This document shows positions 1,260 to 38,509 of a stretch of 61,068 nucleotides of DNA, piece by piece (the stretch's first letter is position 1; each line of letters starts with the position of its first letter). The position numbers and the translations under genes are program-made. The stretch spans positions 1 through 61,068 of the forward strand of contig JAWLCZ010000001.1 in NCBI GenBank assembly GCA_041686835.1. Reading direction: 5' to 3'. The notes beneath the pieces were generated by a model that was not told the origin of the DNA, did no database searches, and saw nothing but the letters and a program-made list of their open reading frames with translations. Source of the DNA: Paenibacillaceae bacterium. Lineage in GTDB: Bacteria; Bacillota; Bacilli; Paenibacillales; JAWLCZ01.

Positions 1260-1267
1260 AAGAATCG

Positions 1268-3600: not shown

Positions 3601-3861
3601 AATTGAAAATAAGTCGATATTAGCGCTTTTTAATATTGTTCTCTTCTTCCTCACCGTTCCGCAGTGGGGACTTTTCTGTGCGAACATATATTCACTGACA
3701 GACTAATGACTATGCTGATTTGTAAAATGGTGTGTAGATTGGTGTCGAAAAAGGAGATTTCATTTGGTTTGTAGAATAAGTCTAATGCACTAATAAGGAA
3801 AATGGCGCATGTTGGATGCACTAAACAACTTGGAGTTTACAGAAGGGCAGGGACTACATAG

Positions 3862-5331: not shown

Positions 5332-6514
5332 GTGGGAAAAGGTGAAGTTAGGAGAAGTTGCTACGATACAAGGTGGTTATGCTTTTAAAAGTGATCAATT
5401 TATTAAAAATGAAGTGCCTATTATTCGTATTGGGAATTTGGATGGAGAGAATGTAGTTTTAGATTACAACATCTGTTACCCATACGACTTTTGGGAACGA
5501 TATGATGCCTATCGTATTAAAAAAGGAGATATATTAATAGCTATGTCGGGCGCGACCGTTGGAAAAGTCGGTCGGTACGCTCACTCAGAACCTGCTTTGT
5601 TAAATCAACGTGTTGGAATGTTACGGGTAAATGTTAAAATCATTTTTCCTGACTATGTTTATTGGTACGTAAAATCCGGATTGTTTTATAAGCAAATACA
5701 ACAACTATCAATAGGATGTGCTCAACCAAATATTAGTGCAAGGCAAATAGAAGATATATATGTTCCTTTGCCCCCGTATGAAGTACAAAAGCATGTCGCC
5801 CAAACCCTAGGTACCGCCGCAGAACTGCTTGCAATGCGCAGGCAGCAGCTTGCTGAGTTGGATAACCTTATCAAGTCCGTCTTTTGCGATATGTTTGGCG
5901 ATCCTGTATCCAATGAGATGGGTTGGAATAAATATTTCCTTTCAGATGTTTTTGATATCATAGACGGAGACAGGGGGGGAAACTATCCCAAACAGGAGGA
6001 TTTCTCCGAAGAAGGATATTGCTTGTTTTTAAATACCGGAAATGTAACAAAGGAAGGGTTTTCTTTTGAGAGCGTTAAATTCATTTCCAAAGAGAAAGAT
6101 CATCAACTACGAAAAGGAAGATTAGAACGCGGCGATATTGTTTTGACCACAAGAGGGACAGTTGGGAATATTGCTTATTATAATGATGCCGTTCCATACG
6201 ACGTTGTTAGGATAAATTCCGGAATGGTTATCCTTCGCAAGAAAGATCGTTCCATATCTCAAGAATTCTTTTGTGAGTTATTTAAAAGCAAAGAGATGGT
6301 AAGAGAAATCACATCTTTCATGTCCGGGACGGCCCAACCACAACTTCCAATAAGTAATATGAAAAAGATAATGATTATATTGCCTCCAATTGAGTTGCAA
6401 TGTCAATTTGTCCAAACCCTCACCAAAATCGAAGAACAAAAAGCCCTGGTAAAAAAGGCTATCGACGAAACACAACACCTGCTCGATAGCCTAATGAATC
6501 AATATTTTGATTGA
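5321..6514 (+). CDS. hsdS: Type I R-M specificity subunit HsdS
   Basis: Two very AT-rich variable target-recognition halves, separated by a conserved central helix (AQTLGTAAELLAMRRQQLAELDNLIKSVF) and a C-terminal helix (IEEQKALVKKAIDETQHLLDSLMNQYF). The start is TTG 5321 or GTG 5324 and overlaps the hsdM stop. Confidence 0.85.
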   Translation: MVSKWEKVKLGEVATIQGGYAFKSDQFIKNEVPIIRIGNLDGENVVLDYNICYPYDFWERYDAYRIKKGDILIAMSGATVGKVGRYAHSEPALLNQRVGMLRVNVKIIFPDYVYWYVKSGLFYKQIQQLSIGCAQPNISARQIEDIYVPLPPYEVQKHVAQTLGTAAELLAMRRQQLAELDNLIKSVFCDMFGDPVSNEMGWNKYFLSDVFDIIDGDRGGNYPKQEDFSEEGYCLFLNTGNVTKEGFSFESVKFISKEKDHQLRKGRLERGDIVLTTRGTVGNIAYYNDAVPYDVVRINSGMVILRKKDRSISQEFFCELFKSKEMVREITSFMSGTAQPQLPISNMKKIMIILPPIELQCQFVQTLTKIEEQKALVKKAIDETQHLLDSLMNQYFD

Positions 6515-6534
6515 TTTCAACCGAGGTGAATGAA

Positions 6535-9500
6535 ATGGCTGCAAACTTTGATTTCTTACAGGGACAAACCGAATATGCGCTGTTCGCTGCAGCCTGCATC
6601 GAGGCGGAGCGTGTGCTCGCCACCTCGCCCGCCATGGCGGCGGTGGGCTGCCGGAAGGCGCTGGAGCTTGCGGTGAAATGGGTCTATTCCGCCGACAACA
6701 CCATCACCATGCCCTATAAGGACAATTTGCAGTCGCTCATTCACGAGCCGTCGTTCCGTTTTGCCATGGAACATCAGACGTGGAGCAAGCTGCCCTATAT
6801 CGTCAAGTTGGGCAATCTCGCGGTGCATACGGACAAGGCGATCAACCGCAGCGAGGCAGTGCTGTCGCTCTCCGCGTTGTTCGAGTTTATCCAGTGGCTG
6901 GATTACTGTTACGGCTCCAACTACGAGGAACGCCAATTCGATGAAGCCCTAATCCCGACGGGGAAAGTGCTTCTGGACGAATCGGCCGTCAAGGAGCAAC
7001 ACAGTTTGCTTCAGCAAAAGGATGCCGAAATCGAGGCGTTGCGCGCCCAAATCGAGGCAATGAGCGAACGGCTTACTGCCGATAAGGCAAAGCACCAAGA
7101 AGAGCGTAGCTTTACTCCGGTAAACATCTCGGAATATCTTACCCGTAAGAAGTATATTGACGTGGACCTGAAGCTCCTCGGCTGGACGTTCGGCGACGAC
7201 GTCCGCGAAGAGGTTCCGCTGACCGGTATGCCCACCCCGGAGGGGAAAGGCTACGCCGATTACGTGCTGTACGGCAAGGACGGTCTGCCTCTTGCTGTCA
7301 TCGAAGCAAAACGCTCCTCCAAGGATCCGAAAATCGGCACCCAACAAGCGAAGCTGTATGCCGATTGCTTGGAACGAATGACGGGCCAGCGCCCGATGAT
7401 GTTTATCACGAACGGCTTTGAAACGTATCTGTGGGACGACGTGACGTCGCCGCAGCGCAAGGTTAGCGGCATCTTCGGCAAGGCCGACCTGGAGAAACTG
7501 ATGCAGCGCCGCAAAGATCGCAAGCCGCTCGCGGAAATACCAATCGATGACAAAATAACTGACCGGTATTACCAGAAGGAAGCGATTCGGGCGGTGTGCG
7601 AGCATATCGAGTCGGGACACCGGAGAGCGCTGCTGGTTATGGCGACCGGAACAGGCAAAACGAGAACGGCGTCGAGCTTGACCGATGTGCTGTCCCGTGG
7701 CGGGCATGTGACCAACGTGTTGTTTCTGGCGGACCGGACCGCGCTGGTAAAGCAGGCGAAGGACGATTTCAAGAATTACCTTCCGGATATGTCGCTCTGC
7801 AACCTGTTGAGCAACAAGGACGATAAAACGGCGCGCATTGTCTTTTCCACCTATCCGACGATGTTGAATGCGATCGACTCGGTGAAAAGCGAGGACGGAC
7901 GAAGGCTGTTTACTCCGGCCCATTTCGACCTCATCATTATTGACGAGGCGCATCGTAGCATTTTCAAGAAATACCGGGCCATCTTCGAATATTTCGACGC
8001 AATTTTGGTTGGGCTGACCGCAACACCCAAGACCGAAGTGGATCGCAACACGTACGAATTTTTCGAGATGGAAAAAGGCGTGCCCACCTACGCATACGAT
8101 TACGAAACAGCCGTGGAGAAGGACCATGTGCTGGTGCCTTATTACAATATTGAAGTCACCACGAAGTTTTTGGAGCAGGGTATTACATACGATGACCTGT
8201 CAGAAGAAGACAAGGAGCGTTACGAGGAAGACTTTACGGACGAAGACGGAACGATGCCGGATTCGATTCCGGCACCAGCGGTCAACGAATTTATTTTCAA
8301 CCAGTCTACCGTCGATATGGTGCTGGAAGATCTGATGACAAAAGGCATCAAGGTGGCGGGCGGGGATCGCATCGGAAAGACAATCATTTTTGCGCAAAAT
8401 AAAAGGCATGCGGAATACATCGTGGAACGGTTCAACAAACTGTACCCGCAATATAAAGGCACGTTTGCGAAACGCGTTACATATGAGGATAACTATGCGC
8501 TTACGATCATCGACGACTTTAAAGTGCCCGAGAGAGAACCGCATATCGCCGTTTCGGTAGATATGATGGATACCGGCATCGATGTGCCGCAAATTGTGAA
8601 TCTTGTGTTCTTCAAGCGTGTCCGCTCCAAAGCGAAGTTCTGGCAGATGATCGGCCGCGGTACAAGGCTCTGCAAGAATTTGTTCGGCGAAGGGCAGCAT
8701 AAGACGCATTTTGTGATCTTTGACTATTTGGGCAATTTCGAGTTTTTCCGGCAAAATAAAGAAGGTTTGCAAGGGAACGAAACGTTGAGTTTATCCGAAG
8801 CGATCTTCGCAAAACGGATCCGGCTGATTCATCATATGCAGCATGCCCAATTTGCGGACGAGCCTTGCCAAAAGCTGCGTACGGAGCTAATCGAAACCGT
8901 CGTGCGCCAGATTCGCCAGTTGAATCCGGAACTCGTGTCGGTCAAGATGAAGCTGCAGTATATTGAGAAATACAAGCATGCGGATGCCTTCGTGAGCCTG
9001 TCTGATACGGATAAACATCACCTCATCGAACACTTGAGCCCGATCGTGTATATGGAAGAGACGGACGAGTTCGCCAAACGGTTCGATAATCTGATGTACG
9101 GCCTCATGCTTGGTTCGATTGAAGGGACGCCGCAGTTCAAGATAAGCAGGAAACAACTTAACGATATCTGCACGAACTTAGCGAAGCGGGCGACGATTCC
9201 GCAAATTAAACAGAAACTGGAATTGATCCATGCGGTTCAGACGGAGCTATTTTGGCAGGATGCCGGTCTATTGGATTATGAGAAAATAAGGGTCGAGCTA
9301 AGGCATCTCATCAAATTTACTGTCGATGAAGACGGTGGGAAAAATCCGGTGTACACCAACCTGACCGACGAGGTACTCGAAATCAAGGAAGGTGAAGCGA
9401 TCTATCGGGCGTACGATTTCGAGGATTACAGGCTGAAGGTGAACCGCTATATTGAGGAACACCGCGATCATCTGGCGATTCACAAGCTGCGCAACAACAT

Positions 9501-9885
9501 CCCATTGACTGCGTCCGATTACGAAAGCCTGGAGCGGATTTTCACTGGAGAGTTGGGTACGGTGGAGGATTACCAGCGGGAGTTCAAGGACACGCCTTTT
9601 GGCTTGCTGGTTCGTAAAATCGCCAAGCTGGAATATGAGGCGGCGCTTGCAGCTTTTTCAGAATTTATCAACGACCAGTCGCTAACCCAGGCGCAGATCG
9701 TCTTTGTCAAAAAAGTGATCGATTACATCGCACAGAACGGCTATATCGAGAGCGTATCCGAACTGACGAAGCCGCCTTTCGACAAACCGCAGAGCTTTAT
9801 CAAGCTGTTCGACGGCTCCAAGCAAAAACGGCTCGTTGAAGTGATCAATCAGATCAAGGAAAATGCGGTGAAAGTTGTTGGATGA
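6535..9885 (+). CDS. hsdR: Type I R-M restriction/helicase subunit HsdR (DEAD/DEAH box; DUF4145-like N-terminus; EcoEI-R-C-like C-terminus, tentative)
   Basis: Walker A LLVMATGTGKTRT, DEAH box LIIIDEAHRS and helicase motif VI QMIGRGTRL. I prefer the ATG at 6535, which follows RBS GAGGTGA, to the listed TTG at 6511. Confidence 0.9.
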   Translation: MAANFDFLQGQTEYALFAAACIEAERVLATSPAMAAVGCRKALELAVKWVYSADNTITMPYKDNLQSLIHEPSFRFAMEHQTWSKLPYIVKLGNLAVHTDKAINRSEAVLSLSALFEFIQWLDYCYGSNYEERQFDEALIPTGKVLLDESAVKEQHSLLQQKDAEIEALRAQIEAMSERLTADKAKHQEERSFTPVNISEYLTRKKYIDVDLKLLGWTFGDDVREEVPLTGMPTPEGKGYADYVLYGKDGLPLAVIEAKRSSKDPKIGTQQAKLYADCLERMTGQRPMMFITNGFETYLWDDVTSPQRKVSGIFGKADLEKLMQRRKDRKPLAEIPIDDKITDRYYQKEAIRAVCEHIESGHRRALLVMATGTGKTRTASSLTDVLSRGGHVTNVLFLADRTALVKQAKDDFKNYLPDMSLCNLLSNKDDKTARIVFSTYPTMLNAIDSVKSEDGRRLFTPAHFDLIIIDEAHRSIFKKYRAIFEYFDAILVGLTATPKTEVDRNTYEFFEMEKGVPTYAYDYETAVEKDHVLVPYYNIEVTTKFLEQGITYDDLSEEDKERYEEDFTDEDGTMPDSIPAPAVNEFIFNQSTVDMVLEDLMTKGIKVAGGDRIGKTIIFAQNKRHAEYIVERFNKLYPQYKGTFAKRVTYEDNYALTIIDDFKVPEREPHIAVSVDMMDTGIDVPQIVNLVFFKRVRSKAKFWQMIGRGTRLCKNLFGEGQHKTHFVIFDYLGNFEFFRQNKEGLQGNETLSLSEAIFAKRIRLIHHMQHAQFADEPCQKLRTELIETVVRQIRQLNPELVSVKMKLQYIEKYKHADAFVSLSDTDKHHLIEHLSPIVYMEETDEFAKRFDNLMYGLMLGSIEGTPQFKISRKQLNDICTNLAKRATIPQIKQKLELIHAVQTELFWQDAGLLDYEKIRVELRHLIKFTVDEDGGKNPVYTNLTDEVLEIKEGEAIYRAYDFEDYRLKVNRYIEEHRDHLAIHKLRNNIPLTASDYESLERIFTGELGTVEDYQREFKDTPFGLLVRKIAKLEYEAALAAFSEFINDQSLTQAQIVFVKKVIDYIAQNGYIESVSELTKPPFDKPQSFIKLFDGSKQKRLVEVINQIKENAVKVVG

Positions 9886-26541: not shown

Positions 26542-26740
26542 TCTTTTGCCCCCCTCTTTGGTTCACGCACTAATTTATTTATTTGATTCCTGAGCTCGTT
26601 TTACCTCTTTCATCCGCATCATTTTTCTCCGGAAAATTCAGTCCGGCGGCGGAAGATTGAACATTTCGCAAATCCGCAATACAATAGTACTATCCGCAAG
26701 GCAAAGCATGTTTGCCAATAGGAAAGGAATTTCGCAGGTC

Positions 26741-27715
26741 ATGTCCAAAGCTGATAACATGCTGTCCATTTTGTGGCTGCTGAAGACGGGAAAACGGATG
26801 ACGGCCAAGCAGCTGGCCGAGGCGCTGGAAATCAACGTCCGGACCGTTTACCGGTATATTGACGCGCTTTGCGCCAGCGGAGTGCCCATCCTATCCGATT
26901 CGGGACATAACGGCGGGTACAGCTTGCCCGAGTCTTTCACCGAAGTTCCGCTGTTTTTTGATCTGGATGAACAGAAACCGCTCATTCATGCGGCCATGTT
27001 TGCCCGGGAAGCGGGGTATCCGTTCGGAGATTCGTTGAACCGGGCCATCGCCAAATTAAAAATGTACGCCAACGAGGAACAATTGGACAACATCAACCGC
27101 CATGTCATCGGCTTCGACGTCATCATTCCGCCATCCGATGCTTCCTTGGAATCGCTTCTCAAGGAACTGGAAACGTCGGTGGCGGACAGCCGCACCCTCT
27201 TCATCGAGTATCAAAAGGCATATGGAACTTCCGCCCAACCCCGCCGCATCGATCCCTACGGACTCATTTATTGGAAAAGCAGGTGGTACGTTGTCGCCTT
27301 CTGCCATCTTCGCCGTGAAATCCGCAGCTTCCGCGCGGATCGCATCCGGTCTTTATCCCGCACGGATTCCGTGTTCCAACGGCCGCCCGGGTTTTCCGCC
27401 CGTCAATTTTTTCTCGGCAGTATTCTTCCCGACACGGACAATGCCGATCAACCCGTTTCCGTACGCATCCAGGGAAAAGAGCAGGCGATCAATGACTTGT
27501 GCGGGCATTGGTTGTTCGGACATGCCCTTACGGAACGTTGCGGGAATGAAGCCCGGTTCAGGTTCGACGAGCAGGCGATTCGCACCTATGTGCCTTACTT
27601 TCTCCTGACGTACGGAAAATCGATTCGGGTGCTGGAACCGTCTTTGCTGCAGGAAAAATTGGCGGCAGTCGCTTCGGAATTGCTGGATTATTATCGGACG
27701 TTTTCACTTCACTGA
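26741..27715 (+). CDS. YafY-type HTH + WYL-domain transcriptional regulator
   Basis: HTH MTAKQLAEALEINVRTVYRYIDALCASGVPI. WYL region IDPYGLIYWKSRWYVVAFCHLRREIRSFRADRI. Confidence 0.8.
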   Translation: MSKADNMLSILWLLKTGKRMTAKQLAEALEINVRTVYRYIDALCASGVPILSDSGHNGGYSLPESFTEVPLFFDLDEQKPLIHAAMFAREAGYPFGDSLNRAIAKLKMYANEEQLDNINRHVIGFDVIIPPSDASLESLLKELETSVADSRTLFIEYQKAYGTSAQPRRIDPYGLIYWKSRWYVVAFCHLRREIRSFRADRIRSLSRTDSVFQRPPGFSARQFFLGSILPDTDNADQPVSVRIQGKEQAINDLCGHWLFGHALTERCGNEARFRFDEQAIRTYVPYFLLTYGKSIRVLEPSLLQEKLAAVASELLDYYRTFSLH

Positions 27716-28749: not shown

Positions 28750-28996
28750 TTATCATATTATCAAGTGGGCCGTCCCGTAAGCAGCAATTTAGCTGCATGG
28801 GGAGGCTCCTTTTTTTGCCCGGCATAGGTCATCGGGTTTATTCGCTATAACGAACATTTTCCTACATAATTGAGAACATTTTTCTATTTGAAAAGGAAAT
28901 GAAAGTAAGTAAATTGGACTATTTACTTAGATTACATTATTTGACAGAATGTTATAAAATCATGGAAATTTGTCGTTTGACTTTGGAGTGGAACGA

Positions 28997-29449
28997 ATGC
29001 ATCCCTTAGTATGGCTCCCTTTGGTTTGTCTGCTCACCGTCGCCGTCATCACCGACCTTAAAAACCGCATGATTTACGATTGGATGACCTTACCCGGTCT
29101 TGTTTATTTTTTAACGGTTCATTTGATTCTTCGCGATTTGAGTTGGCTCGAGACGTTCGGCGGCTTGTTCGGACTCGGGGGAGTATCGCTCCTCATGGCC
29201 GCTGTAAGCCGAGGTCAATTCGGCGGCGGGGATATCAAGCTTTTTGCCGCGATAGGGGCTGGTTTGGGCTGGTCTGCGGGCATCTGGGTCTTCCTGCTTA
29301 CATTTCTTACCGCCGCTCTTGCTGCATGGCCGATCCTCCTGATCCGAAAGCTGCTTCCGGGAAAAGGAGAAGGGGTGAGGGAGCTTCCGATGGCACCTTT
29401 TATGGGCGCAAGCACAATGGTTATTCTCTTCACAGTCCAAACGTTTTGA
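28997..29449 (+). CDS. tadV: Prepilin peptidase, A24 family (TadV/CpaA)
   Basis: Polytopic membrane protein with the two catalytic Asp contexts VITDLKNRMIYDW and FGGGDIKLFAAIG. Confidence 0.8.
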   Translation: MHPLVWLPLVCLLTVAVITDLKNRMIYDWMTLPGLVYFLTVHLILRDLSWLETFGGLFGLGGVSLLMAAVSRGQFGGGDIKLFAAIGAGLGWSAGIWVFLLTFLTAALAAWPILLIRKLLPGKGEGVRELPMAPFMGASTMVILFTVQTF

Positions 29450-29461
29450 GGTGTAGCGGCT

Positions 29462-30355
29462 ATGTTCGAATCGAAACGGCGGGCCTTCATTTTCATGCTG
29501 GCTTCCATTTTTCTGGCGCTGGTCGCCGTGATCTTGTTTTCCGACTATATCGCGCAAACGAAAGCAAGTTTGGGTGAGATGACGACGGTGCTGGTGGCGA
29601 AAGAAGATATTGGAGCGGGCAAGCCGATTGCCGACAATATGGTAACCGAGAAAGAAATTCCGAAGAAATATATGCTCGATTCGCTCATTCAATCGAGATC
29701 CGATCTCAAAGGCAAAATCTCGATGGTGCCCATTCCCAGAGGATCGGCCATCACTTCACCCATGCTCCGCAAGAACACGATTGTCACCGGGGAGAACAGG
29801 CAGGTGATGCTGCGTGCGCCTTTGGCGATTTTTGACGATCAAATCGATACGCTGGATAAAGTGGATCTAGTTGCATCTTTCGATGCGCAGCCAGGCCCCG
29901 GCGAACCGTCAAAGCAGGATAAACGGACGACGAAAGTGCTGTTCAGAGATGTTACGGTGAGCAGAGTGGACAAAAAAGGGGACGAAATTGTCGCGATAGG
30001 CGTGGTTTTGTCTTTGGCGGATGCGAAGGAGGCCATATGGGCCCTCAACTACGGGAAAGAGATTCGGGTCCTGAAAAGCGGCAGCGCCAAAGCGCCGTTG
30101 GATACGGCAAATGCGGAAGACAACAAGACCGAGGGGACAGAACAGACACAAATGCCAACGCCGCAGCCGCAGTCCCAGGCAAAGCAGCAGGCTCCGGCAA
30201 AGCAGCAGGCTAAAGATGCGAAAAACAGCACAGCCCCGAAGGCAGGACAGTCACAAAAACAAACGCCGCAGTCTCGGCCTCCGGCTGGGAAGCAGGCTCC
30301 GGCTCCATCGCCCGCCAAACCGAAAGGAGGGCAGCAAGGAAATGGCGGCTCCTAA
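29462..30355 (+). CDS. cpaB: Flp pilus assembly protein CpaB/RcpC (SAF domain) with Q/P/A-rich C-terminal tail
   Basis: N-terminal TM (FIFMLASIFLALVAVILF), then VLVAKEDIGAGKPIADNMV (SAF-like). The tail is QPQSQAKQQAPAKQQAKDAKN... Confidence 0.7.
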   Translation: MFESKRRAFIFMLASIFLALVAVILFSDYIAQTKASLGEMTTVLVAKEDIGAGKPIADNMVTEKEIPKKYMLDSLIQSRSDLKGKISMVPIPRGSAITSPMLRKNTIVTGENRQVMLRAPLAIFDDQIDTLDKVDLVASFDAQPGPGEPSKQDKRTTKVLFRDVTVSRVDKKGDEIVAIGVVLSLADAKEAIWALNYGKEIRVLKSGSAKAPLDTANAEDNKTEGTEQTQMPTPQPQSQAKQQAPAKQQAKDAKNSTAPKAGQSQKQTPQSRPPAGKQAPAPSPAKPKGGQQGNGGS

Positions 30356-31547
30356 AATCTCGATTGTTTGCGACGATGCACAGCTCGCGCGGAAGCTGAT
30401 TCAAAGCATTCATTTTATGGATATGCCTCTGGGAGAGATCATCGACCGTCCGAGAGAAGCCTACATGCACGTGGATCCGAACGAACCCCGCATTGTGCTG
30501 CTGGCGGAACCTTCCGAGCCGGTCCATGTCACGCCAATCATTCAGCAGCTGAAGAAAGTGAACGAAACGGCACCTGTCATCTACTTGAGCAAAACGACGG
30601 AGTTCGCTTCGCTCCGGGAGATTTACCGCGCCGGCGTTACGGACATTCTGCGCGTCCCGGATGAGCTCGATCAGCTCGCTCCGATGCTGGGCAAAGCGGT
30701 TCAGCAGCTGCAGCATAACCGCCACAGGCTCGAGCTGCAGGCCGCCGCTTCCCCGGCGAACCCGGGTACGGTCATTGCCGTTTACAGCGGCAAAGGCGGA
30801 GCGGGAACGACGATGATCAGCGCCAATTTGGCGCAGGCGATCGCCTTAAACACCGGCGCGCGGACGCTGCTGATCGATTTGAACCTGCAGTTCGGCGGCA
30901 TTCATCATCTGTTCGACATCCGCTTCGACCGGAATTTGGGGGATCTCAAATCCGTGCTGCACGAGCTTACGTTCAGCCAACTGAGCAACGTTCTCTACAG
31001 AATGGAAACGTCCGGGCTCTGCATCCTGCTGTCGCCTAATCATCCGCAGGAAGCGGAAAACTTCAAAAGCGAGGATGTCGAACTGCTGCTGTCGGCCTGC
31101 CGCCAGCATTTTGATTACATCGTCATGGATCTTCCGATGGAACTCAACGAAATTTCGATCAGCGCGATCAGCCGGTGCGACCGTCTTCTGTACGTCATCA
31201 ATCTGGAGCGCCCGGCGATCCTTCGCATGCAGAGCGTTCTGGACATCTTGGACCGGTATCATCTGGTGAAAGAGGAGAATCTTTACCTCGTGATCAACAA
31301 GTACAGCAAGACGCAGGACGTTACGCGCGGCGATCTGGAGAAAATGACGACGCTGCCCATTATCGGCGCCATCTCGGATGACCGGAAAGGGATTCTGCAG
31401 ACGAATATCAATCTGGGCCGGCCTCTGTTAACCAAGCCGAAGGATAAAGGCGGCAAAGGACCGCCCCGCGATATGTATCAACTGATGACAGACTTGCTTG
31501 CGCGAACGGGAGGCGAGAAACATGTCCATCTTCCAAAAGCTCAGTAG
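30342..31547 (+). CDS. tadZ: TadZ/CpaE: atypical receiver domain plus ParA/MinD-type ATPase
   Basis: Deviant Walker A VIAVYSGKGGAGTTMISANLA. The N-terminal ~110 aa are CheY-like. ATG at 30342, after GAAAGGAGGG. The listed longer ORF is an out-of-frame overlap with the cpaB tail. Confidence 0.8.
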   Translation: MAAPKISIVCDDAQLARKLIQSIHFMDMPLGEIIDRPREAYMHVDPNEPRIVLLAEPSEPVHVTPIIQQLKKVNETAPVIYLSKTTEFASLREIYRAGVTDILRVPDELDQLAPMLGKAVQQLQHNRHRLELQAAASPANPGTVIAVYSGKGGAGTTMISANLAQAIALNTGARTLLIDLNLQFGGIHHLFDIRFDRNLGDLKSVLHELTFSQLSNVLYRMETSGLCILLSPNHPQEAENFKSEDVELLLSACRQHFDYIVMDLPMELNEISISAISRCDRLLYVINLERPAILRMQSVLDILDRYHLVKEENLYLVINKYSKTQDVTRGDLEKMTTLPIIGAISDDRKGILQTNINLGRPLLTKPKDKGGKGPPRDMYQLMTDLLARTGGEKHVHLPKAQ

Positions 31548-32868
31548 CCGGTTGGACGATCCGCAGGAGGCGCAGAAAACGTCTCACGATTACCTCGATT
31601 ACCTGTTCAATCACTACAAAGACCGGCTGCTGAAAGAAACGAATTTGGACCAGCTCATCAAACTGCCGAACTACCAGAAGCGAAAAACGATCGAGAAGAT
31701 GATCCACGATATGCTGGAGCAGGATAAGGTGATCATTACCCAGGTGGACAAGGCGAAGCTGCTCGAGATGATTTTGAACGATTCCGTCGGGTATGGGCCT
31801 TTGGAACCGCTGCTTCACGATGACGAGATAACGGAAATCATGGTGAACGGGCCGGATGAAGTGTACATCGAGCGGAACGGGAATATTTCGCTTTCGAACG
31901 TTTCCTTTAAAAATCATGAACATATACGCCATATTATCGACCGTATCGTCGCCCCGATCGGCCGGCGCATCGACGAAAGCTCGCCGCTCGTGGACGGACG
32001 GCTGGATGACGGTAGCCGGATCAATGCGGCGATCCCGCCGATTGCCCTGCACGGTCCGGTCCTGACCATCCGAAAATTCAAGAAAGACCCTTACACGATG
32101 AAAGATTTGATCGGGTTCCGGACCTTATCGGAAAAGATGGCTCTTTTCTTGCAGGCGGCCGCCGCTTCGAAAATGAACATCATCATCTCCGGGGGGACCG
32201 GCAGCGGGAAGACGACGCTCTTGAACGTCGTTTCGGCGGCCATTCCGCCCGGTGAACGCATTATTACGATCGAGGACATGGCCGAATTGCGGCTCAACCG
32301 CAAAAACACCGTCTCCTTGGAAGCCCGTCCCGCCAACATGGAAGGCACCGGCGAAATCACGATTCGCCAATTGGTGCGCAACGCGCTCCGCATGAGGCCT
32401 GACCGGATTATTGTCGGCGAGGTGCGCGGCGGAGAAGCGCTCGATATGCTGCAGGCGATGAATACCGGCCACGAAGGATCGCTGACCACCATCCACGCCA
32501 ACAGCCCGCAAGACGCGATGTCCCGGCTGGAGGCGATGATTCTGATGAGCAATCCTTCGATGACGGCTGAAGTCATCCGGCCGTTCATCTCCGCGGCGAT
32601 TCATCTCGTCGTTCAAGCCCTGCGTCTATCGGACGGCACAAGAAAGATCGTCTCCATTGCCGAAGCCGTAACGGAAGGCGGCGAGCTCAAGCTGAAGGAG
32701 ATCTTCCGTTTCAACCGCCAAGGTGTCGAGATCACCGGCAAAGTTATCGGCGATTTCGTTACGACCGGTTATGTGCCGAATTGCGCGCAGCGGCTGAAAA
32801 CATACGGGCACGAGCTTCCCGCCGATTTCTTCGCTTCGGAAGGGAGCGCGGTGGCCCGTGTCGTCTGA
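31522..32868 (+). CDS. tadA: TadA/CpaF secretion ATPase (VirB11/GspE superfamily)
   Basis: Walker A IIISGGTGSGKTTLLN, Asp/His boxes (RIITIEDMAEL, TGHEGSLTTIHAN), and RPDRIIVGEVRGGEA. Confidence 0.9.
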   Translation: MSIFQKLSSRLDDPQEAQKTSHDYLDYLFNHYKDRLLKETNLDQLIKLPNYQKRKTIEKMIHDMLEQDKVIITQVDKAKLLEMILNDSVGYGPLEPLLHDDEITEIMVNGPDEVYIERNGNISLSNVSFKNHEHIRHIIDRIVAPIGRRIDESSPLVDGRLDDGSRINAAIPPIALHGPVLTIRKFKKDPYTMKDLIGFRTLSEKMALFLQAAAASKMNIIISGGTGSGKTTLLNVVSAAIPPGERIITIEDMAELRLNRKNTVSLEARPANMEGTGEITIRQLVRNALRMRPDRIIVGEVRGGEALDMLQAMNTGHEGSLTTIHANSPQDAMSRLEAMILMSNPSMTAEVIRPFISAAIHLVVQALRLSDGTRKIVSIAEAVTEGGELKLKEIFRFNRQGVEITGKVIGDFVTTGYVPNCAQRLKTYGHELPADFFASEGSAVARVV

Positions 32869-33799
32869 ATTTCTTCTGTATGTCTTTATCTTCCTGGCCG
32901 TAAGTTTGGGGACGATCGGCGCAATCGAAATGGTATCGGTCCGCAAAAAGATTAATGCGTTGAACAAGAAGCTCAGGCAGCTCCATACGGAGGAAGCGCG
33001 CCGGAAGAAGAGCCTGTACCAGCGGCTCGCCGTCCGGCTTAACCAATCCGAATACGGCAAGGAATGGGAAGAAAAGCTGAAAAGCGCCAATATGAAGCTC
33101 GGCCTGTTCGATTGGACGCTGATTCGGGCCGCCGCCCTGTTGATCATTACGATTTTGCTGTACTCATTGGTCGGCCTGAACTTTCCGTATAATGTGACGG
33201 CCGCCTATTTTCTGATGAATCTCGGCAGCAAGCGGTGGCTGAAAATGCGCAGCGGAAAGTATGCGCAGCTGATTAACCGGCAGCTTCCCGAAGTGTGCCG
33301 CATGATGGCGAGCTGCATACGCGCGGGGCTCAGCGTGCAGCAGGCGATCGAGATGGTGGCCAGGGAGCTCAAACCGCCGGCCGGGCCGCTGTTTCAGGCG
33401 ATGTCCAGCGAACTGAGGATGGGGACGACCATTGACGCCGTGCTGGAGAGGCTGCATGAACGGTTTACAAGTAAAGATATCCGGCTCATGACGCAGACGA
33501 TTCTCGTCCAGCGCCGGGCCGGAGGCAACCTGAGCCAGGCGCTCGATCATCTCGCCAAGACGCTGGAGGATCGCGAACGGATGAACCAGGAGCTGAGCAA
33601 CCAGACGGCGGAGTCGCGGTATATTGCCTTCACGCTGGCGCTCATGCCGATTTTTCTGATCATCGCGTTCAATATGGTGTTCAAAGGATTTGTTACGCCG
33701 ATTTTCACCTTGCCGGGCTTGATTCTGCTCGCCGTCGTTCTGGCGCTGATGATTACGGGCTTTCTGCTCATTCGCAAAGTTTCCAACATAAAGGCGTGA
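32858..33799 (+). CDS. tadB: TadB (T2SS-F family inner-membrane platform protein)
   Basis: N-terminal TM, cytoplasmic helical domain (LPEVCRMMASCIRAGLSVQQAIEMVAREL) and C-terminal TMs. Overlaps the tadA stop. Confidence 0.75.
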   Translation: MSSEFLLYVFIFLAVSLGTIGAIEMVSVRKKINALNKKLRQLHTEEARRKKSLYQRLAVRLNQSEYGKEWEEKLKSANMKLGLFDWTLIRAAALLIITILLYSLVGLNFPYNVTAAYFLMNLGSKRWLKMRSGKYAQLINRQLPEVCRMMASCIRAGLSVQQAIEMVARELKPPAGPLFQAMSSELRMGTTIDAVLERLHERFTSKDIRLMTQTILVQRRAGGNLSQALDHLAKTLEDRERMNQELSNQTAESRYIAFTLALMPIFLIIAFNMVFKGFVTPIFTLPGLILLAVVLALMITGFLLIRKVSNIKA

Positions 33800-33803
33800 T
33801 ACG

Positions 33804-34730
33804 ATGATCCCGTGGATTTATTCGATTGCGATTGCCGCTTTCGTATGCTGGGCCTTCTCCATGGTCGCCTTCTGGCGTTACCAGGTACGGCGGATCAGCT
33901 TGCTCCGACAGCTGGAGATCATCCGGACGGAAAAAAAGAAGAAGAAAACATGGACCGACGACGTCAAGGAAAAAGTGTTCCGCTGGTCGCACCGGCTGGC
34001 TCCGCTCGGCAAACGGTTTCGGATATTCGTCAACGAGCAGGATCTGTCGCGTACCATCGCCCTGGCCGGACATCCGAACGGACTGGATGTGGAATCGTTC
34101 CACGGCTTCCGGTTTTTGTGCCTGTTTGCCGGCCTGTTCGTGGGAACGGTGCTGTCCTGGCTCGGTTTCGGGAGCGTGGTGCAAATCGGATTTCTCCTTG
34201 GAGGGCTTTTTTTCCCCCAGATCTGGATTCGTTCCGCCGCCGCCCGCAGGCAGGAACAAATCGGCATCGAACTCCCGGAATTTATGGATGCCATGAGCGT
34301 GACACTGCAGGCCGGGGTGCCGATGGATCCCGCGATCAAACAAATCGTGAATCATATGGACGGGCCGCTCAGCGAGGAACTGAACCGATTTCAGCAGGAG
34401 CTGGATATCGGCGTGCCGAGGGAGGAAGCCTATCTGCGGCTGATGAACCGGAACCAGTGCAAAGAGCTGGAGACGCTCATTCTTTCGCTTGTTCAAGGGA
34501 GCAAGCTGGGAGTCCCTATCGCCAATACGTTCAAGGTGCTGGCCGAGGATATGCGCGAATCGCGAGTCGGCAAGATTAAGGAAAAAGCGGCCAAAGCCGG
34601 ACCCAAGGTGACCCTGATTACGACGTTCGTCATCCTGCCGGCCGTCATCCTCTGCGTGGTAGGACTTCTCGTTCTCAATTTCATCTATAACCCGGAAGGC
34701 ATCGGGATATCGTGGGAGGAGTTCAAATGA
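33804..34730 (+). CDS. tadC: TadC (T2SS-F family platform protein)
   Basis: ELPEFMDAMSVTLQAGVPMDPAIKQIV ... TFVILPAVILCVVGLLVL. Confidence 0.75.
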   Translation: MIPWIYSIAIAAFVCWAFSMVAFWRYQVRRISLLRQLEIIRTEKKKKKTWTDDVKEKVFRWSHRLAPLGKRFRIFVNEQDLSRTIALAGHPNGLDVESFHGFRFLCLFAGLFVGTVLSWLGFGSVVQIGFLLGGLFFPQIWIRSAAARRQEQIGIELPEFMDAMSVTLQAGVPMDPAIKQIVNHMDGPLSEELNRFQQELDIGVPREEAYLRLMNRNQCKELETLILSLVQGSKLGVPIANTFKVLAEDMRESRVGKIKEKAAKAGPKVTLITTFVILPAVILCVVGLLVLNFIYNPEGIGISWEEFK

Positions 34731-34975
34731 TCCGATGGAAGGGAGGTGAGCTCTTGCTGAGAAAAGCAAGCATCTCGTTGTACTGCAATGCAGGTCGGCT
34801 GCTACGTTATGCAAGAAATCAAAGAGGAGCCCAGGCGATCGAATACATCGGCGTCGCCGCGCTCGTGATCGTGCTAATCCTTGCCCTGATCAAGCTGTTT
34901 GGAAGTGAAGGCGATGGAATCGCAAAGAAATTGGTGGATAAACTTAAAGGCTTCATCGATAAGATCAGTATTTAA
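34727..34975 (+). CDS. flp: Flp-family prepilin
   Basis: RNQRG|AQAIEYIGVAALVIVLILALIKLF, i.e. the G-x4-EY processing motif plus a hydrophobic helix. The mature part is ~52 aa. The start is ambiguous: ATG 34727 after GGGAGGAG, or TTG 34754 after GGGAGGTG. Confidence 0.8.
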   Translation: MIRWKGGELLLRKASISLYCNAGRLLRYARNQRGAQAIEYIGVAALVIVLILALIKLFGSEGDGIAKKLVDKLKGFIDKISI

Positions 34976-34997
34976 TATCCGATCTTGGACCGGGAAC

Positions 34998-35381
34998 ATG
35001 CAATGGCTTCGCAACGAAAAAGGTTCCCAGGCGATCGAATTCATCGGGGTGCTGCCGCTCTTTTTGCTCATGATCCTCATTGTATGGCAGTTTGCCCTTG
35101 CCGCCGCGGCGGCGGTTACCGCCAAACAGGCCGCGATGGAAGGTGCCAGGGCAGCGATGGTGGAAGAGGTTCAGGAAACGAGCTACGAAACCGCGGTCCG
35201 CAATGCCGCTTCCGGTTATAAGGTCAGCAAAGTGGCCAAACAAGAGACTTCCGACGGCTATGTGAAAGTATCCGTCACTTTGAATGCCCCGCTTCTGTCG
35301 AACGCGAAGCTGTTTAATACAAAAGGCCTGGAGCTTCCCGTCACGGCGGAAGCGACCGTCCGGAAGGAAAAAAAGAGATGA
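34998..35381 (+). CDS. tadE: TadE-like pseudopilin
   Basis: MQWLRNEKG|SQAIEFIGVLPLFLLMILIVWQFALAAAAAVTAKQAAMEGARAA. Confidence 0.75.
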   Translation: MQWLRNEKGSQAIEFIGVLPLFLLMILIVWQFALAAAAAVTAKQAAMEGARAAMVEEVQETSYETAVRNAASGYKVSKVAKQETSDGYVKVSVTLNAPLLSNAKLFNTKGLELPVTAEATVRKEKKR

Positions 35382-35442: not shown

Positions 35443-37014
35443 ATGATGAGAAAGCAAAGCCTTCTGGCCCTTGTCACGATTTTTTGTCTGGCTTTCGTTT
35501 ATGGGACTTGGGCTTTTGCGGAAGAACCGGCGGTTGACTATCATTTGGATTCCCACCACATTCCGGCGAAGAACGGGACTCCGGAAACGACGATTACCGT
35601 GGAGACGGCCGAACCGGATCCGGATGCGGCCAATCCGAACGATCCGAACGGCGGGAACAAGACCGGGAATCCTTCCGCCCATCCCGGAGATGCTTCGAAC
35701 AACGGGGGAAACTCCCCAGGCGGCGGCACCTCTCCCGGCGGGACGAGACAAGACGGGAAAACGAATTCGCCGCAGGCCGCCAATCCGGAGGCGAATCCGC
35801 AGACGGGAACGCAGTCGCCGGGCACGAACTCCACCTCGGAAACGAACTCGCCGGGTACCGGGTCGCCTGATGCGAACCCGTCCGGAGAACCGGCGCCGGG
35901 GAACGCCAACCCTTCGTCCGCGAACCCCGGGAGCACGAACCCCGGAGACGCTCATCCCGGCGATGCCAAGCCGGGGGAGGCGAAGCCCAACAAGCCAAAG
36001 ACCCCGTGGTACGAATCGTTGTGGAACAAAGCGAAGCAGGCCGGCAAGGGAGCGCTTGCCGGAGCGATCGGAGCCGGTATCGTGATCGGCATCGTTGTGG
36101 TCGGCGCCTTGGTGCTGGGGGCCGCAATCAGCGCACCGCTTCTTCTTACCGCATTGGCGGTCGGCGTGTTGGCGGGGGTAGTCTATGGACTCATGGCCGG
36201 AGATCAATTCAGTTGGATCAAAGGCATCGGTATCGGCGGTATGGCTGCCCTGGCCGTCATTACCATCGGGGAACTCGGGGTCGGGGCGGCGTTGCGCGGT
36301 GCGATCCAAGTCGTCCGCAGCGCCGGGATGCGCGGTGCTCTAAGGGCGGCGGGAAGCCGATCGCTCGGTTTGCTGAGAGGAGCCTTTGGAGGCCTCCAAT
36401 CTTTTGTCCGGGGGCTGGGAAGTGCGCCTTTGCAAACGCTCAAGAAGGCGGTTTTCAACAAAGTGTTCGGTGTGACGTTCGGCACGAACCTGGGAGCGAA
36501 CTATCTCGGTCATTTGGCTTTTACCGGAAAAGTTCCGGGTGTGGGAGATACGGCCAAAATTTTGGCGGAAAGCTTCGTAAGCACGCTGATCCTCAACAGA
36601 GCCTTCAAATTTAGACTGCCGACGGGCAAATCGGCTCTCGGAACGGGCAAGGTCGGCGATTTTACGAAAGTGAAAAACTTGAAAGATTTTCGCTCCAGAA
36701 TCCCGAAACATGCAGATCAGCTGCCGTGGAAAAAGATTCCCGGAGGCGCCGAGAAAGGCGTTAAATACAGATGGACCGATACGAACGGGGATGTATACAA
36801 TGTGCGGGCTCACAGCCCGGACCCCTCCGCCCCGCCGGGCAGCAATGCCGCAGAAGGTTGGATCTACAGGGTGGAAGTCCGTTTCGGCGGCCAGGGAAAA
36901 ACGTACTTTATGGATTCGAGCGGCAACTTTCACCCGCAGAATGTGATGAAACCCACCAGCCCGATGTATAACGAAGCGATAGCCAACGACACGCATATTC
37001 CTTTTGCGAAATAA
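35443..37014 (+). CDS. Unassigned 523-aa secreted/membrane protein with polymorphic-toxin-like layout
   Basis: Layout by residue:
- aa 1-26: signal peptide MMRKQSLLALVTIFCLAFVYGTWAFA.
- aa ~55-187: N/P/G/S low-complexity region.
- aa ~203-283: three predicted Gly-zipper TM helices.
- aa ~284-400: Gly/Arg-rich amphipathic region containing FTGKVPGVGDTAKILAESF.
- aa ~405-523: compact globular domain (..GVKYRWTDTNGDVYNVRAHSPDPSAPPGSNAAEGWIYRVEVRFGGQGKTYFMDSSGNFHPQN..THIPFAK).
I recognise no family. Confidence 0.6.
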   Translation: MMRKQSLLALVTIFCLAFVYGTWAFAEEPAVDYHLDSHHIPAKNGTPETTITVETAEPDPDAANPNDPNGGNKTGNPSAHPGDASNNGGNSPGGGTSPGGTRQDGKTNSPQAANPEANPQTGTQSPGTNSTSETNSPGTGSPDANPSGEPAPGNANPSSANPGSTNPGDAHPGDAKPGEAKPNKPKTPWYESLWNKAKQAGKGALAGAIGAGIVIGIVVVGALVLGAAISAPLLLTALAVGVLAGVVYGLMAGDQFSWIKGIGIGGMAALAVITIGELGVGAALRGAIQVVRSAGMRGALRAAGSRSLGLLRGAFGGLQSFVRGLGSAPLQTLKKAVFNKVFGVTFGTNLGANYLGHLAFTGKVPGVGDTAKILAESFVSTLILNRAFKFRLPTGKSALGTGKVGDFTKVKNLKDFRSRIPKHADQLPWKKIPGGAEKGVKYRWTDTNGDVYNVRAHSPDPSAPPGSNAAEGWIYRVEVRFGGQGKTYFMDSSGNFHPQNVMKPTSPMYNEAIANDTHIPFAK

Positions 37015-37042
37015 GGAAAAAGCCCGATAAGAGGTGACCGGA

Positions 37043-37459
37043 ATGCGATTCGCAAAGTTGACCAAACAGTTAACGCAAGGCCGTGACAAAGACAAGATAA
37101 ATACGCTCAGCTATCTGTGCGACGTGTTCGAATCTTACAACAAGAACATCGAGCACTTCGACGAAATTGTTCGATTGCTGATCGACGGCGCGATTGCCGA
37201 GGAGAATTTGGAAATCAAGGGCGAATTTTTCGAGGCATTGTCCAAAGCCGCGGTATTTCATGACGTGGAGCATATCGATTTTGACAAAATCGCACAGAAT
37301 CTGGACAGCTTGCCGATTGCATGCCTTGTCAGAGGCATCGACATTTTAAGCTTTACGCACAATTTGAAGTATCTTCCGACTATCGAGAAATACCGCAACC
37401 ATGAAAATGAGTATGTCCGGGAAGCCGTGGAGACCGCCATCAAGGAAATGACGGGCTGA
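37043..37459 (+). CDS. Unassigned 138-aa cytoplasmic all-helical (HEAT/ARM-like) protein; immunity-protein candidate
   Basis: Starts 29 nt after the 523-aa gene, behind RBS AAGAGGTG. No signal peptide. Helical repeat-like sequence (IVRLLIDGAIAEENLEIKGEFFEALSKAAVF.., ..NEYVREAVETAIKEM). Confidence 0.5.
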   Translation: MRFAKLTKQLTQGRDKDKINTLSYLCDVFESYNKNIEHFDEIVRLLIDGAIAEENLEIKGEFFEALSKAAVFHDVEHIDFDKIAQNLDSLPIACLVRGIDILSFTHNLKYLPTIEKYRNHENEYVREAVETAIKEMTG

Positions 37460-37487
37460 TCTCTCTTTCGCTTCGGGAACAAGGGAA

Positions 37488-37793
37488 GTGAGAAGTTTGG
37501 GCAGACCATGGATCGAGTATTGGAAACAAAAGCCGCTGCTGCATTGGTTATGGTGGAGCATCGGATTTTTCGCCGCCACCGTTTTGGTTGTCGGTTTTCT
37601 TGGCGGGGACCGCGACTATATATCCTTCCGGGCCGGAGTGACGGTGGCCGTGATCGCTGCGATTCCCCTGATCGGCGTAACGGCGCTCATGTACATCATT
37701 GCCGACCGGGAAACCCGCAGGGCGTATAACTTGCGCCTTCTGCTGGTCGCTCTCCTCATCGTCATCAAATATACTTGGGAGTATGTTTCATGA
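37488..37793 (+). CDS. Unassigned 101-aa membrane protein with an N-terminal G-x4-EY motif
   Basis: M/V-RSLG-RPWI-EY-W.., then three hydrophobic segments. The stop overlaps the tadG start (ATGA). The start is uncertain (GTG 37488 or TTG 37497). Confidence 0.5.
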   Translation: MRSLGRPWIEYWKQKPLLHWLWWSIGFFAATVLVVGFLGGDRDYISFRAGVTVAVIAAIPLIGVTALMYIIADRETRRAYNLRLLLVALLIVIKYTWEYVS

Positions 37794-38509
37794 CGATGAA
37801 AAAATACCTTCGCAACGAGAAGGGGAGCATGTCCATCGTTGCTCTGTTTACGCTCGCGGCAGTCATCATCGGAAGCGTGTTTCTGTTTTATTTTTTCACC
37901 GCCTTCGTCGAGAAGCGGCAGGCGCAAAATATCGCCGATGCCGCGGCCCTGGCCGCCGCCCAAGTCCTGAGGGACAAGTTTGAGGAAGCGATGAAGAACA
38001 AAACCGAAGAAACGTTGAACCGTTTTCTGAATGCGACTCTTCCTTCGGAATATGACAAGCTGAGCGAGGATCCCAAGCCTGAATTCGAAGACTTCAGGAA
38101 AAAATTTATCGACGCGAATATTCGCTCGGAAGAGTTGAAGCAGAAGCTCCTCTCCGAAACGTACCGTAACGACGAGGATTGGCCGCTGGTGGTGAAAGAG
38201 CCTTTTTTCCAGAGCGAATACGACGCGCAGCAAAACGGGGATATTCTGTATCAAGCCTTCGTTCAGAACGGTCCGGCGATCGGTGATGCGGCACGCACCG
38301 CGATAGAGCTTAATCACGGCAAACCAACGGGCATCATCACGTTCCCCGACGAAGGGAAACCCAAATTGCTGGTGGAAGCCGCCCGGACCGTCCGCATCGA
38401 CAACATCGGTCTTGAGAAAGATATATCCACCGTTGCGGCCGCCGGAGTCAGCTCCAAAGAATTTGATATCGACGTGGGCAGCAAGACGCCAAGGTCAATC
38501 CGATGGTGA
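37790..38509 (+). CDS. tadG: TadG-like pseudopilin / Flp pilus-assembly protein
   Basis: MTMKKYLRNEKG|SMSIVALFTLAAVIIGSVFLFYFFTAFVEKRQAQNIADAAALAAAQ (TadG N-terminal signature). Confidence 0.7.
   Translation: MTMKKYLRNEKGSMSIVALFTLAAVIIGSVFLFYFFTAFVEKRQAQNIADAAALAAAQVLRDKFEEAMKNKTEETLNRFLNATLPSEYDKLSEDPKPEFEDFRKKFIDANIRSEELKQKLLSETYRNDEDWPLVVKEPFFQSEYDAQQNGDILYQAFVQNGPAIGDAARTAIELNHGKPTGIITFPDEGKPKLLVEAARTVRIDNIGLEKDISTVAAAGVSSKEFDIDVGSKTPRSIRW

Follow-up and report, generated by a model that had tools for sequence, protein, structure and literature searches.

A Tad-operon membrane carrier with exchangeable C-terminal toxin modules and a candidate Ntox30 immunity protein in Paenibacillaceae

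Three genes between tadE and tadG

The stretch of DNA analysed here (the window) comprises 61,068 nucleotides of a Paenibacillaceae bacterium and contains a complete Tad/Flp locus in which three genes, encoding proteins of 523, 138 and 101 aa, lie between tadE and tadG (open reading frames (ORFs) ORF523, ORF138 and ORF101). An initial annotation, made from the sequence alone, had placed three genes at this point of an otherwise contiguous Tad locus and read them as a toxin/immunity-like cassette. Their coordinates were confirmed, and comparison with related loci shows that ORF523 is a polymorphic toxin on a carrier belonging to this subtype of Tad locus.

All genes of the locus, identified by a Pfam/NCBIfam scan of the window proteins, lie on the + strand, and those from TadV to TadC are contiguous or overlapping. 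ORF523 (35443–37014, ATG start) lies between the gene for the TadE minor pilin (34899–35381; PF07811, E 5.6e-9; NCBIfam TadE_Rv3655c; motif G/SQAIEF) and ORF138 (37043–37459; 138 aa from ATG, or 141 aa from an alternative in-frame GTG at 37034). ORF101 (37488–37793, GTG start), a membrane protein with three transmembrane (TM) helices, follows between ORF138 and the gene for the TadG-like pseudopilin, which is the last of the operon (37790–38509; PF13400 Tad, E 3.7e-8; TIGR03816; alternative TTG start at 37775). Upstream of tadE the order is TadV prepilin peptidase (28970–29449; Pfam Peptidase_A24), CpaB (29462–30355; SAF), TadZ-like ParA ATPase (30339–31547; AAA_31/CbiA), TadA (31498–32868; T2SSE, E 2.7e-62), TadB (32858–33799; T2SSF), TadC (33804–34730; T2SSF) and the Flp pilin (34712–34975), which carries the motif G/AQAIEY and has a weak Flp_Fap match (E 0.0024).

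The stop codon of ORF523 (TAA, 37012–37014) is followed by a Shine-Dalgarno-like AAGAGGTGA and then by the ATG of ORF138 at 37043. The position first given for this start therefore stands, and the spacing is 28 nt rather than the 29 nt first reported. At the other end, an ATGA at 37790–37793 overlaps the stop of ORF101 with the ATG of tadG, consistent with the translational coupling of the two genes that had been proposed. From tadE to the end of tadG, a simple consensus scan detected no + strand terminator that was convincing, terminator-like sites being overall fewer than in shuffled sequence, and the best promoter-like sites lay upstream of tadV and downstream of tadG. Because convincing internal terminators are missing and the best promoter-like sites lie outside tadV–tadG, the locus looks like one operon.

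Architecture of the ORF523 carrier

ORF523 begins with a Sec-type signal peptide (residues 1–26, ...WAFA / EE; 35443–35520, + strand) made up of an n-region (MMRKQS), an h-region and an AxA motif. The cleavage motif AFA ends at residue 26, and A26 is invariant in one of our alignments (A1); no G/XXXXEY prepilin motif is present. The signal peptide is followed by a head (~residues 27–60, PAVDYHLDSHHIP..ITVETAEPD) and a low-complexity spacer, delimited by alignment and composition (together 35521–35997, +). An alignment of 19 homologues shows a conserved head and a spacer of variable length. The spacer of ORF523 is 126 aa long (P 23, G 22, N 19, A 14, S 14), a composition from which it probably spans the cell wall.

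The membrane scaffold that comes next (residues ~186–392; 35998–36618, +) was delimited by hydropathy, charge and alignments A2, A5 and A8. It holds a PWYxxLW motif, three Gly-rich TM helices, an Arg/Gly amphipathic stretch and then two further helices with ESFVxxLxLxRxF at their end. The hydrophobic segments lie at about residues 204–229, 233–253 and 262–284, with six strict GxxxG motifs, and residues 284–345 carry a net charge of +10. In the alignment, the conserved scaffold ends at the motif ESFVxxLxLDxIFR (~residue 392), beyond which the C-termini are unrelated. Cysteine is absent from the C-terminal ~130 aa of ORF523. Signal peptide, spacer, three Gly-rich segments, basic stretch and Cys-free C-terminal domain had all been described in the initial annotation, and this anatomy was borne out. 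So was its placing of the C-terminus in the producer cytoplasm, since the signal peptide, the three TM helices and the +10 segment together predict a C-terminus on the cytoplasmic side. A different outcome was obtained for FTGKVPGVGDTAKIL, which had been likened to a pre-toxin linker (PT-TG). It has no Pfam pre-toxin match, is also conserved in toxin-less homologues, and belongs to the conserved scaffold, where G362 is invariant in alignment A1 and P365 nearly so in A5.

The scaffold has no relative in Pfam, in NCBIfam or, by profile search, in the PDB, and at E <= 0.1 Pfam gave no match in ORF523 other than the toxin domain described below. An AlphaFold2 model of the scaffold built from 18 sequences was all-helical; its predicted local distance difference test score (pLDDT), 73–78 across the TM helices, averaged 62, which is too low for a fold search. 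The scaffold is a family-specific, conserved carrier part.

The C-terminal module of ORF523 carries an Ntox30 domain

The variable C-terminal toxin module of ORF523 (residues ~393–523; 36619–37014, +) starts at the break in homology seen in two related loci (L005 and L010). Residues 417–521 (36691–37005, +) match PF15532 (Ntox30, "Bacterial toxin 30") at E 7.9e-29 over positions 3–102 of the 103 in the profile, and a score of 100.4 bits against a cut-off of 25 means that the match is not due to chance. All the Ntox30 motifs are present in ORF523 (R455-A-H457, R476 and T517-H518-I-P520). R455, R476 and H518 are invariant in nine of nine Ntox30 sequences, and H457 is found in eight of them. The sequence KVGDF opens the Ntox30 module in unrelated proteins too.

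By its definition, Ntox30 is an all-beta domain marked by the motifs RxH, R and THIP, and it was predicted to be a metal-independent two-histidine endoRNase (Zhang et al. 2012, PMC3482391). It is listed among experimentally characterised antibacterial toxin domains, in type VI secretion system (T6SS) effectors (PMC9635880), and a 2023 review still described its RNase activity as "expected". The Ntox30 domain of ORF523 is likewise predicted to be a two-histidine, metal-independent RNase. The fold check suggested in the initial annotation gave no fold-level confirmation of an RNase: an AlphaFold2 model of the domain, built from nine sequences, was confident (pLDDT 94) and mainly beta-strand, and Foldseek gave no significant neighbour for it in the PDB (best E 0.41, TM-score ~0.26). 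A PDB sequence search with the domain was also empty.

ORF138 is a candidate immunity protein for Ntox30

Hydropathy analysis found neither a signal peptide nor a TM segment in ORF138, which is predicted to be all-helical, of HEAT/armadillo-like type and located in the cytoplasm. Pfam gave no significant match for ORF138 itself (sub-threshold CNOT1_HEAT, E 0.08). Its homologue in L001 scores above the HEAT_2 threshold (34.1 bits vs 27.7), and a profile of the family weakly matches designed armadillo repeats in the PDB (E 0.003).

The ORF138 family lies directly downstream of Ntox30 in all five architectures examined, the window included. Homologues for this comparison were taken from the loci of Ntox30 proteins, word-indexed searches with ORF138 or the C-terminal domain having returned very few proteins. 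The four other architectures are a Tad scaffold inside a Tad locus (L007, 80% identity to ORF138), a Tad-type scaffold in an orphan locus (L001–L004, 51%), a PrsW peptidase fusion in Bacillus (L018, 46%, E 8e-44) and a Lysinibacillus gene beside PAAR-like and VgrG-like genes (L019, 24%, E 1e-6). Three kinds of N-terminus, the last of them known from its locus with VgrG- and PAAR-like genes, thus precede the pair of Ntox30 and ORF138 homologue. A hidden Markov model (HMM) of the ORF138 family matched every Ntox30 locus examined and no other locus examined. These data support the immunity role first suggested for the 138-aa protein: ORF138 is likely to be the cognate immunity protein of Ntox30 and, judged by gene adjacency, would bind and neutralise the toxin in the producer. 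That ORF523 and ORF138 are a toxin/immunity pair we hold with high confidence. Zhang et al. 2012 (PMC3482391) recognised an Imm-HEAT class and listed no immunity family for Ntox30, for which the ORF138 family is now a candidate.

In Lysinibacillus sp. FSL L8-0312 (L019, 3034–6759), the Ntox30 toxin and the ORF138 homologue come directly after DUF4280 (PAAR-like) and Phage_GPD/Phage_base_V (VgrG-like) genes, an arrangement that suggests a Firmicute locus for phage-tail-like injection in which this toxin module is used.

Toxin and immunity modules are swapped on a conserved carrier

A homologue search with the whole of ORF523 returned six proteins sharing its N-terminal part and two that matched Ntox30 only. 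Among the six, P0002 (69% identity) and P0003 (55%) combine the N-terminal part with Ntox30. P0004 and P0005 align over only the first 74% of ORF523 and end in Tox-REase-3 (E 2e-20), P0006 is a carrier ending in EndoU (E 2e-25), and P0007 has the shared N-terminal part with a C-terminal domain of no known family. Alignments A1 and A5 both break after residue ~392. The gene order TadB-TadC-Flp-TadE-[ORF523 family] is kept in the loci with swapped toxins, where the Tox-REase-3 version is followed by an Imm7 gene (E 2.4e-43, domain scan) and the EndoU version by an unrelated 116-aa gene. The pairing of Tox-REase-3 with Imm7 is tabulated in Zhang et al. 2012 (PMC3482391).

Identities along these loci show where the exchange takes place. 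Between the window and L005 or L010, the flanking Tad genes are 65–84% identical and the carrier 52%; for the C-terminal domain and the gene after it, no homology to their counterparts in the window remains. With L007, by comparison, the C-terminal domain is 85% identical, the immunity protein 80% and the carrier 71%. Flanking Tad genes are 65–89% identical across the compared loci, the Flp and TadE orthologues of L007, L005, L010 and L012 being 67–89% identical to those of the window and the TadG-like protein 81% (L007) and 65% (L005). All three window proteins have conserved homologues in syntenic loci. The C-terminal domain and its immunity gene are therefore swapped as a module, with the immunity gene co-varying with the toxin domain. 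A comparison of orthologous tad loci had been set as a test in the initial annotation, which expected conserved N-termini, swapped C-terminal domains and co-varying downstream genes if the first gene were a polymorphic toxin, and this is the pattern that was found. By tblastn, the window holds no further copy of the scaffold, the toxin, the immunity gene or ORF101.

The carrier is resident in a subtype of Tad locus

Only 20 hits were obtained when an HMM of the scaffold was run against 1.84 billion representative proteins. Of those that remain beside the proteins above, eleven, comprising every hit of 547–668 aa, have no Pfam domain and share a conserved C-terminal domain of their own, of ~170 aa, for which no PDB relative was found. 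Most relatives thus end in a conserved non-toxin domain, and no immunity gene was found in the toxin-less family loci examined. Named members of the scaffold family come from several Paenibacillus species, Ammoniphilus and Gorillibacterium, and all are annotated as hypothetical protein. Toxin-less forms occur in these three genera and in the complete-genome record CP034541.1. Pattern scans with the scaffold alignment found three Paenibacillus species only among genomes, and no new kind of locus among metagenomes.

Besides the window, 11 distinct family loci, from Paenibacillus, Ammoniphilus, Gorillibacterium and metagenomes, have a member at this position (L005/6, L007, L008/9, L010/11, L012, L013, L014, L024, L025, L033 and L032), with identities to the window down to ~25%. 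TadE lies upstream of the family member in 10 of them. In the eleventh (L032, P0024) the contig starts at the gene, which is followed by 92-aa and 260-aa genes. In L025 an S-layer homology (SLH) gene separates TadE from the scaffold. Wherever the contig continues, the family member has a TadG-like gene downstream. The distant contexts examined, namely P0018, P0022, three isolate genomes and the weakest match, P0028 (E 1e-4), all place the gene between TadE and a TadG-like gene, and all except L033 have a small membrane gene after the scaffold.

Toxin-less loci also contain one or two cell-wall-anchoring SLH-domain proteins (L012, 12202–13852; L014, 9431–10918; L024, 10910–12259; L025, 6435–7943), a kind of protein absent from the Tad locus of the window.

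ORF101-family homologues of 96–112 aa follow the scaffold or the immunity gene in L005, L007, L012–14, L024 and L025. None was called in L033, where the scaffold gene is directly followed by the TadG-like gene, and none is present in the orphan toxin/immunity locus L001–4. Because of this absence from the orphan locus, ORF101 is to be grouped with Tad and the scaffold and not with the toxin. It is, in most loci, a resident 3-TM partner of the carrier, outside the toxin module. The sequence G-RPWI-EY in ORF101 (residues 5–11, 37500–37520) mimics the G/XXXXEY motif of Flp; it is not conserved in homologues and no hydrophobic helix follows directly, so the resemblance is probably due to chance.

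The orphan locus is the one departure from this placement. P0003 (L001, 10001–11998; also L002–L004 and L020; contigs Ga0373397_000890 and Ga0310828_1000468) is a full scaffold–Ntox30 protein that is accompanied by its immunity gene and lies between glyoxalase and aldo-keto reductase genes, with sugar-utilisation genes around. No Tad gene or ORF101 was found within 10 kb on the side(s) to which the contig extends. The sample from which the orphan pair comes also holds a scaffold-bearing Tad locus, which may or may not belong to the same genome.

Other Bacillales Tad loci (L028–L031, from Heyndrickxia, Salipaludibacillus and an uncultured Bacillales metagenome-assembled genome), whose TadC is ~40% identical to that of the window, gave no match to the scaffold or ORF101 HMMs and are a different subtype. 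This rules out that the two proteins are a core of all monoderm Tad loci, a possibility that the initial annotation had named as one that would speak against its reading. In one of these loci (L028, Heyndrickxia shackletonii, 8192–9583), Flp is followed by a von Willebrand factor A (vWA)-domain protein and several genes without a Pfam match.

By these comparisons, the first ~392 residues of ORF523 are a resident part of this Tad subtype, as is ORF101 in the majority of its loci, and the variable module consists only of residues ~393–523 and ORF138. In one subclade, which includes the window, the ancestral ~170-aa C-terminal domain has been replaced by interchangeable toxin modules. The picture of a three-gene cassette wedged into the locus was accordingly given up, as the carrier is resident in toxin-less relatives and ORF101 in most loci. 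The module is smaller, and the carrier more interesting, than first supposed.

Comparison with known systems

ORF523 and its relatives have the hallmarks of polymorphic toxin systems, in which a conserved N-terminal trafficking part is joined to a recombining C-terminal toxin with the immunity gene directly downstream (PMC3482391). They differ from those described in their carrier, whose family is undescribed, lacks a match in Pfam, NCBIfam and the PDB, and is tied to Tad loci. Zhang et al. 2012 (PMC3482391) set out eight delivery routes, none of which is Tad: Sec/type II secretion system (T2SS), type V secretion system (T5SS), T6SS, type VII secretion system (T7SS), Photorhabdus virulence cassette (PVC), PrsW, MuF and TcdB/TcaC.

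The closest mechanistic parallel in Gram-positive bacteria is the class of PrsW-fused toxins, for which extrusion through the membrane has been proposed (Zhang et al. 2012, PMC3482391). One of them, P0008 of Bacillus sp. Marseille-Q3570, consists of a multi-TM PrsW region, Gly-rich hydrophobic segments and Ntox30, is accompanied by the immunity homologue 46% identical to ORF138, and presumably has its toxin in the cytoplasm at the start. Unlike these proteins, ORF523 has no PrsW peptidase and so no obvious means of self-processing; its signal peptide is cleavable, its spacer is long and extracellular, and its gene is placed in a Tad operon. A second parallel is offered by evolved T6SS effectors, in which toxins sit on VgrG, PAAR or Hcp: there, too, a normally toxin-less resident protein gains C-terminal toxins with immunity genes, and copies occur away from the cluster. 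The machines differ (a contractile tail as against a type IV filament), and it is by analogy only that the ORF523 carrier would count among the structural or exported components of the Tad apparatus.

A link between a Tad-type machine and the killing of bacteria has one precedent, the Kil system of Myxococcus xanthus, a Tad-like apparatus needed for contact-dependent killing of prey whose toxin was not identified (Seef et al. 2021, PMC8460266). Kil operates in a diderm predator, whereas the window holds a monoderm locus with an explicit toxin/immunity pair that is not known to confer a killing phenotype; homology between the two is limited to generic Tad components. Finally, like CdiA of the T5SS, ORF523 would have an outward N-terminal part, a toxin retained in the producer until delivery, and a swappable C-terminal toxin/immunity module with a conserved junction (KVGDF here). 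The likeness is one of analogy: unlike CdiA, ORF523 has no two-partner secretion, filamentous haemagglutinin (FHA) repeats or outer membrane, and retention would be achieved by TM helices.

Discussion

The C-terminal domain of ORF523 belongs to a toxin family, this domain is exchanged together with its immunity gene, and the protein family has a fixed position in the Tad locus. Taken together, these results suggest that a Gram-positive Tad machine helps to deploy antibacterial toxins. Because the family lies in a Tad locus in all but one type of locus, and toxins have been grafted onto it repeatedly, the C-terminus of the carrier would be expected to end up where a toxin can reach a competitor, with the Tad machine and ORF101 involved. 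As we picture it, Sec would export the head and spacer until transfer is stopped by the TM cluster; the toxin would stay behind on the cytoplasmic face, bound by the immunity protein. The co-transcribed Tad machine (TadA/B/C, Flp, TadE, TadG and ORF101) would then extract, release or present the carrier and in this way bring the toxin to non-immune bacteria nearby, whose membrane it may enter with the aid of the Gly-zipper helices. In this scheme we infer the RNase activity, the neutralisation by ORF138, the topology and the dependence on Tad. From the synteny on which it rests, we put the probability of Tad-coupled interbacterial delivery of the toxin at about 0.5. A more specific form of the idea is tentative, and we would sooner doubt than assert it: that Paenibacillus-type Tad machines are, in certain lineages or throughout, a hitherto unrecognised delivery route for polymorphic toxins in Gram-positive bacteria, with the Gly-zipper scaffold as a dedicated carrier that is extracted by TadA/B/C and presented or injected on pilus contact, and its C-terminus as a cargo slot that came to be occupied by Ntox30, Tox-REase-3 or EndoU nucleases.

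Several points weigh against Tad-coupled delivery. No known Tad activity moves a protein whose toxin is predicted to lie in the cytoplasm behind three TM helices, and export, delivery and Tad dependence are proposed from synteny. ORF523 has a Sec signal peptide of its own, which would place it in the Sec/T2SS-dependent class in the scheme of Zhang et al. The orphan toxin/immunity pair has no Tad neighbours, so co-location with Tad is not obligatory. The Ntox30 fold has no solved structural relative, which leaves the RNase mechanism as a prediction from the literature. Last, the G+C content at third codon positions of the toxin module and of the immunity gene (both 0.63) does not deviate from that of neighbouring genes (0.62–0.75), and composition thus shows no sign of recent acquisition.

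In an alternative account, Sec alone would export and anchor the protein, and the toxin would then be freed by proteolysis, autolysis or contact hand-over, entering the target by means of its own Gly-zipper helices. The position in the Tad locus would then reflect an ancestral carrier that was pilus-associated or envelope-anchoring, or the usefulness of co-expression with adhesion pili. The canonical signal peptide fits this account, as does the assignment of signal-peptide toxins to the Sec/T2SS-dependent class by Zhang et al.; so do the occurrence of the same Ntox30/immunity module behind unrelated N-termini and the orphan locus, where full scaffold, Ntox30 and immunity gene stand with neither Tad genes nor ORF101 nearby. 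Against it, every other family locus examined that has upstream sequence is a Tad locus with the gene downstream of TadE, over a range of ~25–75% identity, and Sec alone could not let out a cytoplasm-facing toxin anchored by three TM helices. The orphan, moreover, has retained its carrier in full, just as dispersed T6SS and T7SS effectors retain their trafficking domains. We regard delivery independent of Tad as less likely, though it is a serious alternative.

A toxin aimed at the producer itself seems improbable. In such a scheme the carrier would span the envelope and act as a sensor for the Tad pilus, responding for example to pilus-specific phage attachment or to envelope damage. Loss of the immunity protein, or cleavage that frees the toxin, would set the nuclease loose within the cell, as in an abortive-infection-like or addiction module. 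The predicted topology, with toxin and immunity protein both in the cytoplasm and the head outside, would suit such a sensor; nuclease domains of polymorphic toxins have been re-used in anti-phage systems, and the window also carries a defence island with a CBASS (cyclic oligonucleotide-based antiphage signalling system)-type HNH-SAVED effector and a type I restriction-modification system. Yet the exchange of Ntox30, Tox-REase-3 and EndoU along with Imm7 or HEAT-like immunity genes is a signature of interbacterial polymorphic toxins, the same modules are found behind a PrsW domain and beside VgrG-like genes, and most family members have no toxin at all. It is more improbable still, to the point that we give it very little weight, that the Ntox30-like domain is decayed or has been co-opted as a structural or adhesive domain of a Tad accessory protein, with ORF138 an unrelated helical protein. 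That its activity is predicted only, that it has no structural match to known RNases and that ORF138 lacks a significant Pfam match would be in keeping with this, but the Ntox30 match spans the whole profile with the signature residues intact, the C-terminal domain and immunity protein are more similar to those of L007 than is the carrier, and an immunity homologue accompanies Ntox30 in each of the five architectures.

Ntox30, Tox-REase-3, EndoU, Imm7, the Tad genes and the principle of polymorphic toxins were already known. What appears to be undescribed is the carrier family, its fixed place in the Tad operon with toxin-less and toxin-bearing orthologues, and the HEAT-like immunity family for Ntox30. 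In the full-text literature searched, which leaves most subscription-journal papers outside its coverage, we found no report of Tad systems linked to polymorphic toxins in Gram-positive bacteria, in agreement with the initial annotation, whose author knew of no described Firmicute equivalent. If Paenibacillus-type Tad machines do prove to be a delivery route of this kind, they would match evolved T6SS effectors on the Gram-positive side, and a toxin could be named for a Tad system for the first time; Kil, the only Tad-like machine linked to killing, lacks an identified one. Since a resident membrane protein of the Tad operon carries a swappable nuclease toxin, deployment of a toxin by Tad becomes testable with defined genes and mutants. 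The scaffold, joined in most loci by the small 3-TM protein, is an undescribed accessory pair that marks a Tad subtype so far seen in Paenibacillus, Ammoniphilus and Gorillibacterium, and its toxin-less and toxin-bearing orthologues are a natural series for studying how structural proteins become effectors. Were delivery independent of Tad, what remains would be a new family of Sec-dependent carriers bearing known toxin domains, useful but ordinary.

Other features of the window

The CpaB/SAF protein of the Tad locus (29462–30355) ends in a long low-complexity tail (~residues 215–297) in which K, Q, A and P abound. Together with the spacer of the toxin, this suggests that several wall-spanning low-complexity regions are present in this monoderm Tad system. 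A WYL-domain helix-turn-helix (HTH) regulator is encoded at 26657–27715 of the window and also in L033 (1–384; CP034541.1), ~1–1.3 kb from tadV in both, and is possibly a conserved regulator of this Tad subtype. The defence island occupies the left end of the window (24–9885) and encodes a ThiF/E1-like protein (24–1259), the HNH + SAVED CBASS-type effector (1759–2877) and the type I restriction-modification proteins HsdM (3862–5331), HsdS (5321–6514) and HsdR (6511–9885).

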